A DNA stretch of 64,000 nucleotides from Eubacteriales bacterium (GTDB lineage: Bacteria > Bacillota > Clostridia > Oscillospirales > CAG-272): positions 42,399-106,398 of the forward strand of contig JAZONS010000005.1 in assembly GCA_045654585.1 (NCBI GenBank). Reading direction: 5' to 3'. Position numbers and translations under genes: made by a program. Under the pieces are notes generated by a model. The model was not told where the DNA came from. It saw nothing but the letters and a program-made list of their open reading frames with translations, and searched no databases. Shown piece by piece: positions 8,213 to 20,471 of this stretch; position 1 is the first letter of the stretch, and each line of letters begins with the position of its first letter.

Positions 8213-8300
8213 TTTTTTGTTTTTCTCCTTGCTTTTCTGATAACATTATAGTATAATAAAAGCGCGAAGTATGTTGAATTTTCAACAAAATGGAGAAAAA

Positions 8301-8963
8301 ATGAAAAAATATTTTGAAATTTTAGAAAAATGCCCACTTTTCTCGGGCATAGATATGAGTGATCTTTCAAAAATGCTCGGATGTCTTGGCGCGAGAGTTG
8401 AGAGCTTTGACAAAAAATATACTATATTCGCAGAGGGCAAGCCTGCAAAATATATAGGAATTGTGCTCTCCGGCTCGGCTCAGGTAATATCAAACGATTA
8501 TTACGGAAACAGGAGCATACTGTCGAGCGCTGATCCGTCCGACCTCATTGGTGAGTCATTTGCCTGCGCTGACGTAAACGCAATACCGGTATCGGTTATA
8601 GCAAACGAGCCCTGCGAGGTTATGTTTATCGAATGCAGAAGGATACTTCATTCCTGCTCTAATGCCTGCGGATTCCATGCTCAGATGATATTTAATCTCA
8701 TGAAGGACCTCGCGAAAAAGAATATAATGTTCCACGATAGGATAGAGATAACCTCGAAGCGCTCAACGAGAGAAAAGCTTCTTGCGTATCTTATGAGCCG
8801 TGCCAGAATAATGAACAGTTCAAGCTTCGATATCCCCTTTGACAGGCAGGAGCTTGCCGACTATCTTGAGGTGGACAGAAGCGGTCTTTCAGCTGAGATT
8901 GGAAAAATGAAAAAAGAGGGAATTATCGATTGCCGCAAAAATCATTTTGAGCTTTTGATATAA
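8301..8963 (+). CDS. Crp/Fnr family transcriptional regulator
   Basis: ORF track 8271..8963. Start moved to MKKYFEIL at 8301 (GGAGAAAAA upstream). cNMP-binding-like N-domain and C-terminal HTH RQELADYLEVDRSGLSAEIGKMKKEGII. Confidence 0.8.
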   Translation: MKKYFEILEKCPLFSGIDMSDLSKMLGCLGARVESFDKKYTIFAEGKPAKYIGIVLSGSAQVISNDYYGNRSILSSADPSDLIGESFACADVNAIPVSVIANEPCEVMFIECRRILHSCSNACGFHAQMIFNLMKDLAKKNIMFHDRIEITSKRSTREKLLAYLMSRARIMNSSSFDIPFDRQELADYLEVDRSGLSAEIGKMKKEGIIDCRKNHFELLI

Positions 8964-9125
8964 GTCAAAGATCCAGCTTCGCGGGCAAGTAAATAAAGAA
9001 GTATTGTAAAATATGATAAATAACATAATAAGAATACTTTAATAATGCATTGAACAACAAATTATTTATATTAAAAGAGCTATCCTTTACTTTTGTGTTT
9101 AGGATAGCTCTTCATTGTTATTTGA

Positions 9126-9860
9126 TTATTTATTTCTGTAAATCTCGCAGATCTCGGTCACGATCTTCTTTGCGATCTCGATTTCATCTTCGGGAACAGG
9201 TACGTCAAAGTCGGAGAAATCGTTATCAAGAACATCCTTACCCGTGAGCATTTTGAACCATGTAAGACCTGCCGCGTAGCGACCTATACCGAGGCTGAGG
9301 TGGAAGGTGTCGCGGTGAACCTTTATACCCTCTGCGATGAGTCCTGCGAGTACTTCGCCCGAGGGGATTATAAGCTCTATATCCGAATCTTTTGCCGCGC
9401 GTTCGTATGAGGCTCTTATATCCGAGAGCATCGCGCCAAAGCTTTCGTATTTCATCTCCTCGGTAAGGCGGTACGAGCCGTCCTCGTAGCCCCACGTTTC
9501 GTGAATAAGGAGCTTTGCTTTAGGCGCAAGCTTTCGTATATACGTAACGAGATCTTCAAGATATGGCTGATACGTGTCGTATTTTGGTGACTTATTGCTT
9601 ACCTGCTGAAGCGTGATATAATCCCAATCGCGTGAGAGAAGCGCTTCCTTCATTGACGTCTGGAAGCCCGTGCTTATTCCGTTCATCTCGAGCGTATAAG
9701 CCTTCTCCTCGCTCAGCATGTTTCTGTGATGCCTCGAAAGCGGGCATCCGCCGATAAAAAGATTGAAGGTGTGGAGCGTAACTTTCGCAGCTCTCGCTAT
9801 ACCGTAAAGATAGCGCTGAGCATCCTGCGAAAAGCTGTTACCGATAGATAAAACGTTCAT
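9126..9860 (-). CDS. SGNH-like hydrolase, DUF4886-type
   Basis: ORF track, 244 aa. Starts MNVLSIGNSFSQDAQRYL (GNSF block). The family name is from memory. Confidence 0.5.
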   Translation of the reverse strand: MNVLSIGNSFSQDAQRYLYGIARAAKVTLHTFNLFIGGCPLSRHHRNMLSEEKAYTLEMNGISTGFQTSMKEALLSRDWDYITLQQVSNKSPKYDTYQPYLEDLVTYIRKLAPKAKLLIHETWGYEDGSYRLTEEMKYESFGAMLSDIRASYERAAKDSDIELIIPSGEVLAGLIAEGIKVHRDTFHLSLGIGRYAAGLTWFKMLTGKDVLDNDFSDFDVPVPEDEIEIAKKIVTEICEIYRNK

Positions 9861-9875
9861 TTCAGTACCTCTTAT

Positions 9876-10661
9876 TTATAGCTTGTGGAATATTGGTTGT
9901 CTCTTTTCAAACGTGCAGACGTACCCGAATGTATCTTTGAGAATTTCTAGCATCTCGGGGATGTACTGTCCTACCCGTGCTAAGTTGTGCGCATCAGAGC
10001 CAACCGTAACGATTTCTCCGCCAAGCTCGCGGAAGCGACGCAGGAATTCTACGTCGGGAAGCGGAGCTCCAACCCTGTCAATACCGCTCGTGTTTATCTC
10101 CATGCCGCGTCCTCTCACCGCGAGCTCACGCATGATTTCATCGCATATATCACGGTAATCTTTGTAAAAGAGTGGGGAACGTGTGGGATTGTGCGCGGAT
10201 TTGCATACGTAATTTAAGTGACCGAGAACGTCGAACTCGTTATGAGCTTTGACGCACTCGAGAGTGCGCTCAAGATATTTGATAAAAGCTTCCTCTTGCG
10301 TTTTACCTACCCAATATTCCTTGACGTACGGATCGAGACCTTCAACGAAGTGAATTGAACCGATTATAAAATCGAAGTTATATTCCGCGTTGAGTGCGTG
10401 AAGCTCGGGGGCGTTCCAGGTGGTAAGACTAAACTCAACTCCACGTTTAATCGCGATATCCTTTAAGCAAAGACTACCGTAAGCTTTATCGTATACCTCT
10501 TTTGTAAAAAGTCTGTGCAGGCCGTCACGCTCTGAATTGTAATCGTAATGATCTGTGAAGCAGATTTCTTTAAGACCCGCTTCTTTTGCCGCATTTACAA
10601 TGTCTATTGCTTTCTCGTTCGAATCGAATGAAACGTTACTATGTATATGATAATCAAACAT
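9876..10661 (-). CDS. PHP-domain phosphatase (HisJ/histidinol-phosphatase family)
   Basis: ORF track 9876..10673, where the first codon is TTG. Start moved to MFDYHIHS (10661), with GGAG 7 nt upstream. PHP His motifs are present. Confidence 0.75.
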   Translation of the reverse strand: MFDYHIHSNVSFDSNEKAIDIVNAAKEAGLKEICFTDHYDYNSERDGLHRLFTKEVYDKAYGSLCLKDIAIKRGVEFSLTTWNAPELHALNAEYNFDFIIGSIHFVEGLDPYVKEYWVGKTQEEAFIKYLERTLECVKAHNEFDVLGHLNYVCKSAHNPTRSPLFYKDYRDICDEIMRELAVRGRGMEINTSGIDRVGAPLPDVEFLRRFRELGGEIVTVGSDAHNLARVGQYIPEMLEILKDTFGYVCTFEKRQPIFHKL

Positions 10662-17434: not shown

Positions 17435-17791
17435 TTTCGCCTCCGTGAGAATAAAAAATCTTCATTATTATATTATTATAGGTATACGAAAACCGAGTAA
17501 AATGGATGAGTTTGAATAAGAGCAAAAGATTGACCCTTGCTTACCCGAAAGTTGCGGTACAAAAATAATTGTTTTTTGACTTATGTCATTTATTTATAAC
17601 ATATAAAAAAATTAATGTCAAGAGAATAATATAGAAAAAACAGACGCAGTTTTGTGTGATTTAACGAACGAGAAAAAACTCTGCCCCAAAATAACTTCGA
17701 GTAAAAAAAGTCAAGAGTAATCTTCAACAAAAATAAACTTTTTTTTAGTGCATTTTATGTTTTTTTCACAAAAATAAAAATGCGAAAAAAG

Positions 17792-17839
17792 CACAATATC
17801 TAGTACTTGGGTATTGACAAAATCACAAGATGTGGTATA
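17792..17839. promoter_or_regulatory. Two candidate NrdR boxes
   Basis: GCACAATATCTAGTAC (17792-17807, 12/16 to acaCwAtATaTwGtgt) and TCACAAGATGTGGTAT (17824-17839, 10/16). Centres are 32 bp apart. The second box sits between -35 and -10. Confidence 0.4.
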
Positions 17840-17842
17840 ATA
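17815..17842 (+). promoter_or_regulatory. nrdD promoter (extended -10)
   Basis: TTGACA (17815-17820), 16-nt spacer, TGgTATAAT (17834-17842). Confidence 0.6.
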
Positions 17843-18151
17843 TTAGCACAGAGATTTTTTGAGTAAAAAATCTCTACGAATTCACAAGGGAATTCGTCAA
17901 GAAATCGGAGATTTCTTGGTGCAACCTTGTTGTCCGGCGCAAAAATGCATGAAAATGCCCCTACGGGTCGCTTTCGCAATTTTGCTTGTCGAATAATATT
18001 ATCACAGAGATTTTTTGAGTAAAAAATCTCTACGAATTCACAAGGGAATTCGTCAAGAAATCGGAGATTTCTTGGTGCAACCTTGTTGTCCGGCGCAAAA
18101 TGGAGCGAAAATGCCCCACCGGGTCGCTTTCGCAATTTTGCTTGTCGAAAA
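17840..18151 (+). repeat. Tandem duplication of a 156-nt multi-hairpin module in the nrdD leader
   Basis: 17840-17995 versus 17996-18151 differ at 8 positions (17847; 17946-17951; 17963-17964). Each copy has three abutting perfect hairpins plus a longer helix. Confidence 0.9.
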
Positions 18152-18218
18152 GAGAAAACACTTATTTTCGACCGTATTTGTACGTATAGTACAACGATTA
18201 AATTGATAAATAGAGAAG

Positions 18219-18256
18219 CTTCTACCCCGATTTTTGGGGGTAGGAACTTTTTATTC
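18219..18256 (+). terminator. Leader terminator/attenuator 40 nt before the nrdD ATG
   Basis: CTACCCC (18222-18228) pairs with GGGGTAG (18237-18243), followed by GAACTTTTTATT. Confidence 0.6.
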
Positions 18257-18296
18257 ACGAAAAAATAGGATTTAAAAGAAAAGAAAGGAAAAAACT

Positions 18297-20471
18297 ATGA
18301 AGCTTATCAAGCGTAACGGTTCGGAAGAGATCTTCGACCGTGAAAAAATTGCTTCTGCCATTATGAAGGCAAACGAAGCAGTTGATGAAGATGAACAAAT
18401 TACCAAAGGTAAAATAAATAAAATAGCGGCTCACGTTGAATCAAAATGCGAAAAGCTCGGAAGAGCAGTAAGCGTTGAAGAGGTTCAGGATATGGTTGAG
18501 AACGAGCTTATGCGCTCGGGAGCCTTTATCCTCGCAAGAGCTTACATTACCTACAGATATAAAAGAGCTCTCGTCCGCCGTACGAACACTACCGATGACC
18601 AGATACTTTCTCTTATCGAGTGCAATAACGAGGAAGTAAAGCAGGAGAACTCCAATAAGAACCCGACTGTTAACAGTGTTCAGCGTGACTATATGGCAGG
18701 CGAGATATCCAAGGATATCACGAGAAGAATACTTCTTCCTCAAGATATAGTAAAGGCTCACGAGGAAGGACTTATCCACTTCCACGATTCGGACTATTTC
18801 GCTCAGCATATGCATAACTGCGACCTCGTAAACCTCGAGGATATGCTTCAGAACGGTACGGTTATCAGCGGCACGATGATAGAAAAGCCCCATAGCTTCT
18901 CGACCGCGTGCAATATCGCAACTCAGATCATCGCTCAGGTTGCATCCAACCAGTACGGCGGTCAGTCTATAAGCCTTGCGCACCTTGCGCCCTTCGTTCA
19001 GATCAGCCGCGAGAAGATCAGAGCTACCGTAACGGGCGAGCTTGCTGAGATAGGTGTTAACGACGAGTCGGCTATCAATAAGATCACCGAAGCAAGACTC
19101 CGCGATGAGGTCCGCCGCGGCGTTCAGTGCATTCAGTTTCAGGTAGTAACTCTTCTTACCACGAACGGACAGGCTCCCTTCATCACGATATTTATGTATC
19201 TTGGCGAAGCAAAGAACGAGCAGGAAAAGGCAGACCTTGCGGTCATTATCGAGGAAACTCTTCTTCAGCGCTGCCAAGGCGTTAAGAACGAGAAGGGAAT
19301 TTGGATAACTCCCGCCTTCCCGAAGCTCATCTACGTTCTTGAGGAGCAGAATATACATAACGATTCTCCTTACTATTATCTTACCGAGCTTGCGGCTAAA
19401 TGTACCGCGAAGAGAATGGTACCCGACTATATCTCCGAGAAGATAATGCTTCAGAATAAGGTGGACAGCAACGGCGAGGGTCATTGCTACACCTGTATGG
19501 GTTGCCGCAGCTTCCTCACTCCCTACGTTGACGAGGAGGGAAAACCCAAGTATTACGGACGCTTCAATCAGGGCGTTGTTACGGTTAACCTTGTTGATAT
19601 CGGACTTTCCGCTAAGGGTGATATGGATAAGTTCTGGGAGATCTTTGACGAGCGTATGGAGCTTTGCCACAGAGCGCTTCAGGCACGTCACGAAAGACTT
19701 ACCGGAACGCTCTCCGATGCCGCTCCTATCCTTTGGCAGTACGGCGCACTGACCCGTCTTCCCAAGGGCGAGCCTATCGATAAGTACCTTCACGGCGGTT
19801 ATTCCACTATCTCCCTTGGCTATGCAGGTCTTTGGGAATGCGTAATGTCTCTCTGCGGCAAGAAGCTCACTGAGCCTGAGGGCGAGGAGCTTGGTCTTGT
19901 AATAATGAAGAAGCTTAACGAGTATACCGCAAAGTGGAAGAAGGCGGAGAATATCGACTATTCTCTTTACGGAACGCCCCTTGAGTCCACCACTTATAAG
20001 TTTGCTAAGTGCCTTCAGAAGAGATTCGGTATCGTTCCCGGTGTTACCGACAGAATGTATATCACGAACTCCTATCACGTTCACGTAACAGAGCCTATCG
20101 ACGCGTTTGATAAGCTTACCCTCGAAGCTAAATTCCAGGCTCTCTCGCCCGGAGGAGCTATCAGCTACGTAGAAGTTCCCGATATGCAGAATAATATCGA
20201 GGCTGTTCTTTCGGTTATGAAGTTCATATACGATAATATTATGTATGCTGAGCTCAATACCAAGAGCGACTTCTGCCAGGTCTGCGGCTATGACGGAGAG
20301 ATACAGATAGTTGAGGATGAGGACGGAAAGCTCGTTTGGGAATGCCCGAACTGCAAGAACCGCGATCAGTCCAAGATGAACGTAGCAAGACGTACCTGCG
20401 GTTATATTGGTACTCAGTATTGGAACCAGGGAAGAACGAGCGAAATTCAGGACAGAGTTCTTCATCTTTAA
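18297..20471 (+). CDS. nrdD: Anaerobic ribonucleoside-triphosphate reductase
   Basis: ORF track, 724 aa. N-terminal ATP-cone (MKLIKRNGSEEIFDREKI). C-terminal Zn ribbon CQVCGY...CPNCKN and glycyl-radical RTCGYIG. Confidence 0.95.
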   Translation: MKLIKRNGSEEIFDREKIASAIMKANEAVDEDEQITKGKINKIAAHVESKCEKLGRAVSVEEVQDMVENELMRSGAFILARAYITYRYKRALVRRTNTTDDQILSLIECNNEEVKQENSNKNPTVNSVQRDYMAGEISKDITRRILLPQDIVKAHEEGLIHFHDSDYFAQHMHNCDLVNLEDMLQNGTVISGTMIEKPHSFSTACNIATQIIAQVASNQYGGQSISLAHLAPFVQISREKIRATVTGELAEIGVNDESAINKITEARLRDEVRRGVQCIQFQVVTLLTTNGQAPFITIFMYLGEAKNEQEKADLAVIIEETLLQRCQGVKNEKGIWITPAFPKLIYVLEEQNIHNDSPYYYLTELAAKCTAKRMVPDYISEKIMLQNKVDSNGEGHCYTCMGCRSFLTPYVDEEGKPKYYGRFNQGVVTVNLVDIGLSAKGDMDKFWEIFDERMELCHRALQARHERLTGTLSDAAPILWQYGALTRLPKGEPIDKYLHGGYSTISLGYAGLWECVMSLCGKKLTEPEGEELGLVIMKKLNEYTAKWKKAENIDYSLYGTPLESTTYKFAKCLQKRFGIVPGVTDRMYITNSYHVHVTEPIDAFDKLTLEAKFQALSPGGAISYVEVPDMQNNIEAVLSVMKFIYDNIMYAELNTKSDFCQVCGYDGEIQIVEDEDGKLVWECPNCKNRDQSKMNVARRTCGYIGTQYWNQGRTSEIQDRVLHL

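Follow-up and report, generated by a model that had tools for sequence, protein, structure and literature searches.

The stretch of DNA examined here, hereafter the window, comprises 64,000 nt of contig JAZONS010000005.1 (GenBank assembly GCA_045654585.1, Eubacteriales bacterium; positions 42,399 to 106,398 of the forward strand) and contains nrdD, which encodes an anaerobic (class III) ribonucleoside-triphosphate reductase and is preceded by a leader of ~449-455 nt. This leader holds two near-identical copies, in tandem, of a module of ~155 nt that, on comparative evidence, is a real plus-strand RNA structure. Copies were scored with two covariance models, R1 for the whole module and R2 for its 3′ domain, and the features of the locus are as follows.

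17791-17806, plus strand: NrdR box 1 (GCACAATATCTAGTAC), with C4, A6, A8, T9, T11 and G13 all there, kept in all close relatives
17814-17819, plus strand: −35 hexamer TTGACA from a promoter scan, invariant in 10 aligned relatives
17823-17838, plus strand: NrdR box 2 (TCACAAGATGTGGTAT), again with C4, A6, A8, T9, T11 and G13 all there, kept in relatives
17833-17841, plus strand: extended −10 element TGgTATAAT, a 12/12 promoter match with the TG present
17840-17993, plus strand: module copy 1 (R1, 165.5 bits; R2, 98.9 bits, with the 3′-domain match at 17919-17997)
17846-17849 with 17919-17922, plus strand: closing helix P1 of copy 1 (GCAC with GTGC), enclosing three hairpins to give a four-way junction
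17850-17875, plus strand: hairpin 1 of copy 1, perfect, 11 bp, GAGT loop
17876-17897, plus strand: hairpin 2 of copy 1, perfect, 8 bp
17898-17918, plus strand: hairpin 3 of copy 1, perfect, 9 bp, GGA loop
remainder of copy 1, plus strand: a linker, then a long irregular 3′ hairpin ending at 17993
17992-18005, plus strand: inter-copy junction (AATAATATTATCAC), a degenerate copy of the promoter −10 box and start region
17996-18149, plus strand: module copy 2 (R1, 157 bits; R2, 89.9 bits, with the 3′-domain match at 18075-18153; also from the minimum-free-energy fold)
18006-18031, 18032-18053 and 18054-18074, plus strand: hairpins 1, 2 and 3 of copy 2, whose 3′ hairpin domain ends at 18149
18144-18172, plus strand: tail hairpin GTCGAAAA...TTTTCGAC, re-using the last 6 nt of copy 2, with a small hairpin next at 18179-18193
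18220-18255, plus strand: terminator-like hairpin (TTCTACCCC/GGGGGTAGGA; stem 18220-18245, 9 bp, 5 G-C pairs), then ACTTTTTATT
18284-18299, plus strand: ribosome-binding site AAAGGA and nrdD start codon, read in the sequence, with the ATG at 18297
18297-20471, plus strand: nrdD, 724 aa, with PF03477 (ATP-cone), PF13597 (NRDD) and PF01228 (Gly_radical) domains and matching NCBI names for its relatives

This order of elements, in which an NrdR-box promoter is followed by a duplicated module, a terminator-like hairpin and nrdD, is the one described in a first-pass annotation of the window. The promoter fits in full the published definition of an NrdR operator, namely two 16-bp boxes carrying C4, A6, A8, T9, T11 and G13 and lying 15-16 bp apart (PMC13584703): both boxes hold all six positions, the linker between them is 16 bp, box 2 sits between the −35 and −10 elements, and the promoter is that of a ribonucleotide reductase gene. 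Transcription is predicted to start near A17848, judging from the position of the −10 element and from a CAC motif 6-8 nt past it that is conserved in the alignment of relatives. After the terminator-like hairpin, no separate nrdD promoter could be read in the sequence. Folding z-scores were −8.4 for the whole leader and −4.7 for a single module. Since the tail hairpin and the base of the 3′ hairpin of copy 2 both use the last 6 nt of that copy, the two would compete; in L081, a relative introduced below, the last partial copy is closed by the pairing homologous to it, GTCGAA/TTCGAC.

A single array at 17837-18149, with a period of 156, 2.0 copies and 95% matches, is found by Tandem Repeats Finder, and an ungapped comparison at an offset of 156 gives exactly eight differences within the repeat, at 17846 (G/T), at 17945, 17946, 17948, 17949 and 17950, and at 17962 and 17963, with a longest identical run of 98 nt. 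Tandem copies with eight differences had been noted before, and both methods bear this out, although several of the earlier coordinates, those of the differences and the promoter among them, were 1 nt too high. The seven clustered differences fall in the bulge and apical loop of the 3′ hairpin, which also vary between lineages, and the other loops show zero differences. The first-pass annotation had taken this confinement to one helix tip as an argument against neutral drift. The location holds, and the argument in part: because the other loops carry no differences at all, a very recent duplication or homogenisation followed by one or two complex mutations would fit the pattern as well as selection does. 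An open reading frame of 152 aa on the minus strand (17800-18258) spans the whole repeat and stays open only because the period of 156 equals 52 × 3. A protein search found no homologue of it among 5.8 billion proteins, its frame is not kept in relatives, which have 1-nt indels in the loop, and it is very likely not a gene.

Each unit folds into two domains, a four-way junction made of a short closing helix and three A/U-rich hairpins, and an irregular hairpin of ~25 bp with the conserved sequence GCGCAAAAATG..GAAAATGCC-loop-GG.CGCTTTCGCATTTTTGC. Hairpins 1-3 abut with zero-nt linkers, and their sequences were reproduced in no shuffle of the window; three perfect hairpins without linkers had been recognized at the first pass, which missed the closing helix P1. 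RNAalifold applied to six full copies returned P1, hairpins 1-3 and the long 3′ hairpin, with compensatory changes in 16 of 50 predicted pairs. In a 15-copy alignment fitted to the model and drawn from five independent lineages, 91.5% of cells are paired, and double changes occur in 17 of the 50 modelled pairs against 9.0 ± 1.9 in shuffles, none of 500 being as high; sliding the 3′ partner by 1-3 columns left 1-5 pairs with double changes. The variants themselves are informative as to how pairing is kept: for P1 the window has GCAC/GTGC, L081 has ATATCAC/GTGATAT, and L085, L237 and L238 have CTCAC/GTGAG; hairpin 2 is ACGAATTC/GAATTCGT in the window versus GCAAATTCAT/ATGAATTTGC in L081; and the 3′ hairpin stem is either GCAAAAATG/CATTTTTGC or GTAAAAATG/CATTTTTAC, with a tip of CCC/GGG or CGC/GCG. 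The module thus has the conserved secondary structure with covariation support that is generically asked of a riboswitch. The junction leaves 0-1 nt unpaired and hairpins 1-3 have variable loops; most of the conserved bases are in the 3′ helix, together with a few constant mismatches and G·U pairs.

Two measures separate the strands. Among the full copies, G·U or U·G cells number 42 versus two A·C or C·A cells, and R2 scores ~100 bits on the plus strand versus 21-25 bits on the minus strand, so that the constraint acts on the plus-strand RNA, that is, on the nrdD leader transcript. Folding energy used as a strand test gave no separation (−51.7 vs −51.2 kcal/mol). In the leader of the lineage represented by L237, L251 and L252 we also observed that the second unit and the tail (L237 1036-1227, L252 621-812 and the tails of L251 and L252) begin with the same CTCAC strand, enclose different hairpins and are closed by a downstream GTGAG; this leader seems to be built from several diverged domains, each a closing helix plus hairpins, and not solely from one repeated module.

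The window NrdD gave no record on exact look-up; its close relatives in gut and rumen metagenomes number in the hundreds and carry the labels of Clostridia, Eubacteriales or Ruminococcaceae metagenome-assembled genomes. The relatives' contigs, which carry L-numbers here, were found by exact protein look-up. NrdD is so conserved that its amino-acid identity misleads on relatedness. At four-fold sites of nrdD the window is 76% identical to L081 and 52-57% identical to L084, L086, L237 and L238, and these are therefore different species, with silent sites near saturation. Diverged copies of the module lie in the nrdD leaders of four further lineages (L081/L082; L085; L237/L251/L252; L238-L245), so that the conservation and covariation upstream of nrdD which the first-pass annotation had set as its own test were both found. 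Between lineages the 3′ domain is 75-87% identical, against 52-57% at the four-fold sites. Hairpins 1 and 2 are 42-54% identical between lineages, about the silent-site level, yet they are still paired, and hairpin 3 is 52-86% identical. By these comparisons, the module is older than these species, the 3′ hairpin is under purifying selection on its sequence, and hairpins 1 and 2 are constrained on pairing only.

R1 and R2 match only nrdD leaders across the 64-kb window, the relatives' flanks (1.5-3 kb for module-bearing relatives, up to 10 kb for L249 and L250) and the leaders of 80 other species; the scatter over many loci that had been envisaged for a selfish repeat is not seen there. In those 80 species representatives, whose NrdD is at most 86% identical, the module is absent and BLASTN finds only the part of the leader with the promoter and NrdR boxes conserved. 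The leaders of closer relatives without the module (L084, L086/L235, L246, L249 and L250) are unrelated and likewise hairpin-rich, and an R2 search for remnants of the module in module-less leaders found none at significance. Short module-like stretches are visible there by eye (GGGGATTTCTTCGTGCAC and GGCGCATTTTTGTCCGAAAAGC, in L250 and L086). In L249, a gap of 1.7 kb before nrdD (8255-10000) has no module; it holds a tRNA-like gene on the minus strand (~8536-8612) and, at ~9320-9370, a 21-nt direct repeat (GCGCATAAAGCGCGAGCCATG, twice). In the nrdD tree the module-bearing lineages fall inside one clade that also holds the module-less L084 and L086, a topology compatible with a module that arose once and was later lost or replaced.

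In every carrier the array contains at least one full unit, and a truncated unit usually comes after. Successive units are connected head to tail through a short A/U-rich linker, itself a copy of the −10 element and start region of the promoter; as junction hexamer, L237, L238, L241 and L244 have TATAAT, the window and L081 have AATAAT, and L085 has TATAAA. The junction stands at the homologous position in all five lineages, and the tandem state is therefore probably ancestral; taken with the nrdD tree, this shared junction implies an old array with later homogenisation, as read from sequence. Copies within a genome are 95-100% alike, whereas lineages differ by 13-25% in the 3′ domain alone. 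Copy number varies at identical NrdD, apparently even within species: L251 has one full unit and L252 two, and L238 combines a full unit with a truncated one where L240 has a truncated unit only. Contigs L081, L083 and L241-L245 have an end that falls in the nrdD leader, and for five of these it falls in the array. Because short-read assemblers can collapse such arrays, the low-copy alleles are uncertain; L082 and L240 are possibly collapsed assemblies, and copy numbers from short reads need caution.

The site at 18220-18255 has the sequence features of an intrinsic terminator, a G+C-rich stem-loop and a U tract within the leader. A hairpin of this kind is conserved 40-73 nt before the ATG in the close clade, and its sequence itself is kept (TTCTACC-loop-GGTAGRA, then ACTTTTTAT) with or without the module. 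Because it is equally conserved in the module-less relatives L084, L086, L246, L249 and L250, the terminator is not a private expression platform of the module, which suggests a general nrdD attenuation step in the clade, independent of the repeat. Sites homologous to it are present in L084-L086, L237-L252, L001, L003 and L004. Pairing of upstream sequence with the terminator arms or the ribosome-binding region was not above shuffled controls in the window, L085, L237, L238, L251 or L252, the strongest such duplex (L085, initiation region) lying ~1.3 standard deviations above the shuffled mean, and the module lacks the expression platform generically expected of a riboswitch. In the module-less L084, a segment ~40 nt past the predicted start (ATCGGGAGATTTTTTAA) pairs with the 5′ arm of the terminator at −13.3 kcal/mol versus −7.0 ± 1.8 kcal/mol when shuffled, and is a candidate antiterminator in the L084 lineage only.

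Searches for a known identity returned little. Against Rfam 15 (4227 models), a single tRNA at 38932-39002 was all that passed the gathering threshold in the whole window, and the region 17500-18400 at E values up to 10 gave just chance-level eukaryotic miRNA and snoRNA matches far below threshold. The module therefore matches no Rfam family, in line with the first-pass annotation, which had not recognised the fold as cobalamin, purine/2′-dG, c-di-GMP, ZTP, glycine, ydaO or T-box. BLASTN found no match to the module in plasmid and phage collections. The pattern AAAATGCCCCN{2,6}GGGTCG gave chance matches from unrelated environments in metagenomes, among which, for the matches listed, none extends beyond the pattern by nhmmer, and likewise only chance matches in a viral scan; the pattern is too loose, and would also miss the core variant of L237. 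The units lack the terminal inverted repeats of mobile elements; at their boundaries stands a ~14-nt direct repeat, a copy of the promoter −10 and start region. Three further candidates were rejected. A leader peptide of 13 codons in the 3′ domain (ATG CCC CTA CGG ... TAA) has no ribosome-binding site, and its frame is broken by a 1-nt insertion in L081. CsrA-type GGA loops do not apply, as the GGA loop is not conserved and the triloop of hairpin 3 is just three purines. A self-cleaving ribozyme or viroid-like multimer finds no Rfam ribozyme match, and the hairpins have no internal loops.

Some observations concern nrdD and its surroundings more broadly. A block of ~190 nt upstream of the NrdR boxes (window 17610-17790) is conserved in all close relatives whatever the upstream gene; aligned with L084, L086, L238, L246, L249, L250, L251 and L085, it shows the motifs TATAGAAAAAAA, ATTTTGTAGATTTTGACGAA, CTCTGCC, GTCAAGAGTAA and TTTTTTAGTGCA, and perhaps gives nrdD a second regulatory region or promoter. 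Within the nrdD coding region, a lone NrdR-box-like site with one mismatch (CTCAAGATATAGTA, 18739-18752) lacks a partner box and probably arose by chance, three or more matches, the count for the window, being reached in 3 of 100 shuffles. The NrdD of L085 (protein P0001, 848 aa, L085 2004-4550) has an in-frame internal tandem duplication of 124 residues (NGQAPFITIFMYLGEAK...DENG, twice), which may be real or an assembly artefact.

We propose that the module is a clade-restricted, selected, cis-acting RNA repeat of the nrdD leader that probably docks a trans-acting factor or affects the fate of the mRNA, a reading to which we assign a probability of roughly 0.45. The module would be transcribed from the NrdR-repressed promoter as part of the nrdD mRNA leader, and its array would expand, contract and homogenise by unequal recombination. 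The conserved 3′ hairpin could then serve as the docking site, with the array multiplying the sites; since the nucleotides conserved in it belong to an irregular helix whose G·U pairs and mismatches are constant, a protein is a likelier partner than a metabolite. Occupancy of these sites, or the stable 5′ structure alone, may change the amount of full-length nrdD mRNA that survives, either through read-through of the conserved leader terminator or through the stability of the leader. Under this proposal there would be an RNA-level layer of control below NrdR, with copy number as its tuning knob.

Several points weigh against this proposal. Sister species with NrdD 97-98% identical (L084, L086/L235) have unrelated leaders, and the module is therefore dispensable; there are also apparent alleles with a single copy, or with nothing but a truncated one (L251, L240 and L082). 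The restriction to the nrdD locus covers the window, flanks and leaders and not whole carrier genomes, where copies at other loci are possible. The lineages compared are only five, and counts on an alignment fitted to the model lean toward the structure of that model. Should transcription start at the predicted A17848, copy 1 could not form P1, and hairpin 1 would stand at the extreme 5′ end. Nor does the module show complementarity to the terminator or the ribosome-binding region beyond that of shuffles. The case as a whole is built on sequence comparison, and its transcription start is a predicted one. Finally, template-switch mutation can create and maintain perfect hairpins and apparently compensatory changes with no selection on RNA (PMC8794818).

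The last of these points belongs to an alternative in which the array is structured junk or a selfish tandem repeat, that is, a duplicated segment of the leader, with its −10 and start region, that is tolerated and has no specific effect on nrdD. Unequal crossing-over would keep the copies alike, and template-switch errors, documented to create and maintain hairpins (PMC8794818), would make and repair the helices. The module is indeed patchy among close relatives and differs in copy number at the same NrdD protein; contigs of relatives start in the leader, as expected where a repeat breaks assembly; some copies have degenerate hairpins (e.g. L085b, L237b and L241); the differences between the window copies resemble one or two complex mutation events; and module-less leaders are likewise rich in unrelated hairpins. 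However, identity of 75-87% in the 3′ domain, set beside 52-57% at silent sites, points to long-term purifying selection, and the excess of G·U over A·C cells (42 to 2) is expected of selection at the RNA level and not of palindrome repair in DNA. The module also occupies a single locus in the sequence searched, and the array state is common to five diverged lineages, with a homologous junction in each. We consider this explanation unlikely.

It is also conceivable that the leader is a source of small RNAs, stable species of ~155 nt released by cleavage in the linkers or by the terminator, which would act in trans as sponges or regulators, be co-regulated with nrdD by NrdR and have a dosage that follows copy number. 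The units are compact and self-folding, single-stranded A/U-rich linkers separate the units, the leader ends in a terminator-like hairpin ~50 nt before the start codon, and the 3′ hairpin sequence is conserved. Against this, the units have no terminators of their own, and, with no separate nrdD promoter past the terminator, the leader must also serve as mRNA; nor was any target complementarity identified. We find it improbable.

Another hypothesis, close to the tandem-sensor attenuator of the first-pass annotation, is that of a tandem metabolite riboswitch in which each module is an aptamer (for a deoxynucleoside or nucleoside triphosphate, cobalamin or another ligand) and the ligand switches the downstream terminator. 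In its favor, the fold is conserved and covarying, the module lies between a promoter and a terminator-like hairpin and is associated with nrdD only, the 3′-domain sequence is conserved and includes AAAATGCC twice, each repeat a potential partner, in a different register, of one and the same 3′ strand, and at the end of the array the tail hairpin would compete with the base of the last 3′ hairpin. The attenuator model nevertheless fares badly on the present results. The terminator is conserved with or without the module, and antiterminator pairing never rises above shuffled controls; the modules have no expression platforms of their own. A junction with 0-1 unpaired nt, variable loops and conserved bases that are mostly helical seems unlike a ligand pocket. 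The module is also absent from sister species and from the 80 other species, and it varies in copy number and includes truncated copies. A riboswitch of this kind is, in our estimate, a slim prospect.

Least of all do we favor promoter multiplication, in which junctions that recreate a −10 element, preceded at 18 bp by a weak −35 (TTCGCA or TTCACA), would raise basal nrdD transcription from NrdR-independent starts: the junction is TATAAT in L237, L238, L241 and L244 even where the next three bases differ, and AATAAT or TATTAT in the window and L081, and the promoter scan lists TTCGCA (17973-17978)-18-TATTAT at the copy junction (17973-18002), but that weak site matches at just 9/12 with a poor −35 and no TG extension, L237 and L238 have a spacing of 13 nt to the best −10 hexamer, and the covariation and G·U pattern shown by that sequence indicate an RNA-level constraint, so that we regard it as very improbable.

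Ribonucleotide reductase genes are textbook cases of NrdR repression and allostery, and we know of no RNA-level element described as specific to nrdD leaders. The module is thus a new RNA motif and a testable candidate, with compensatory changes, its strand set and sequence conserved beyond the neutral level, and the natural alleles with apparently zero, one, two or more copies form a ready deletion series. It offers a case study of a structured RNA that evolves in concert as a tandem array carrying a copy of the −10 element of its own promoter, and of hairpin evolution by apparently compensatory changes, in which selection and template-switch mutation can be set against each other. A bolder extension would see in it a new class of sensing RNA, for a protein or a metabolite, providing a second control on an NrdR-repressed class III gene as a "variable-number tandem sensor" whose dose-response is tuned by recombination; we think this quite unlikely. 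General importance is limited by the narrow range of the module, a few uncultured gut Clostridia, unless a ligand or partner is found.

Comparison with known systems places the module between categories. The NrdR operator is a known control layer of nrdD, but it is a DNA element upstream of the transcript, whereas the module is a separate RNA-level feature; to our knowledge, no feature of this kind is on record for genes under NrdR control. Processive antitermination leader RNAs, such as put of phage HK022 and EAR of Bacillus, likewise place structured RNA after a promoter and before a terminator past which transcription has to continue if the gene is to be expressed. The module resembles neither in sequence or structure, in keeping with the lack of an Rfam match, and since relatives that lack the module have kept this terminator, the module cannot be all that read-through depends on. 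In the aprE and ermC leaders, stem-loops at the 5′ terminus guard Gram-positive mRNAs from 5′-end-dependent decay, and a single hairpin suffices. If transcription starts at A17848, hairpin 1 would similarly begin within ~3 nt of the 5′ end, but such a role leaves the 3′ hairpin, the four-way junction and the repeated units unexplained.

Tandem riboswitches, for example those for glycine and the tandem thiamine pyrophosphate riboswitches, also consist of repeated structured units in one 5′ leader. The module shares with them repeated units upstream of an intrinsic terminator, covarying folds and a single gene class. It differs in that its units are near-identical, evolve in concert, vary in number and may be truncated, in that it seems to have no conserved unpaired ligand pocket and has no platform, shared or in each unit, for pairing with the terminator, and in being confined to few related species and matching no Rfam family. 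Pneumococcal BOX elements, with their variable number of boxB units, and the bcr1 elements of the Bacillus cereus group (~155 bp) are dispersed at tens to hundreds of loci per genome. Unlike these, the module was found only in the nrdD leader within the sequence searched, has no terminal inverted repeats, and has a 3′ domain conserved beyond the neutral level. Like them, it consists of units of ~50-160 nt with stable hairpins, arranged as variable tandem modules and transcribed in untranslated regions, which differ between close strains and tend to break assemblies. Although it falls short of, or does not clearly show, the defining features of either class, the module is by analogy closest to a regulatory leader RNA in its way of working, and to modular structured repeats of the BOX kind in its behaviour.

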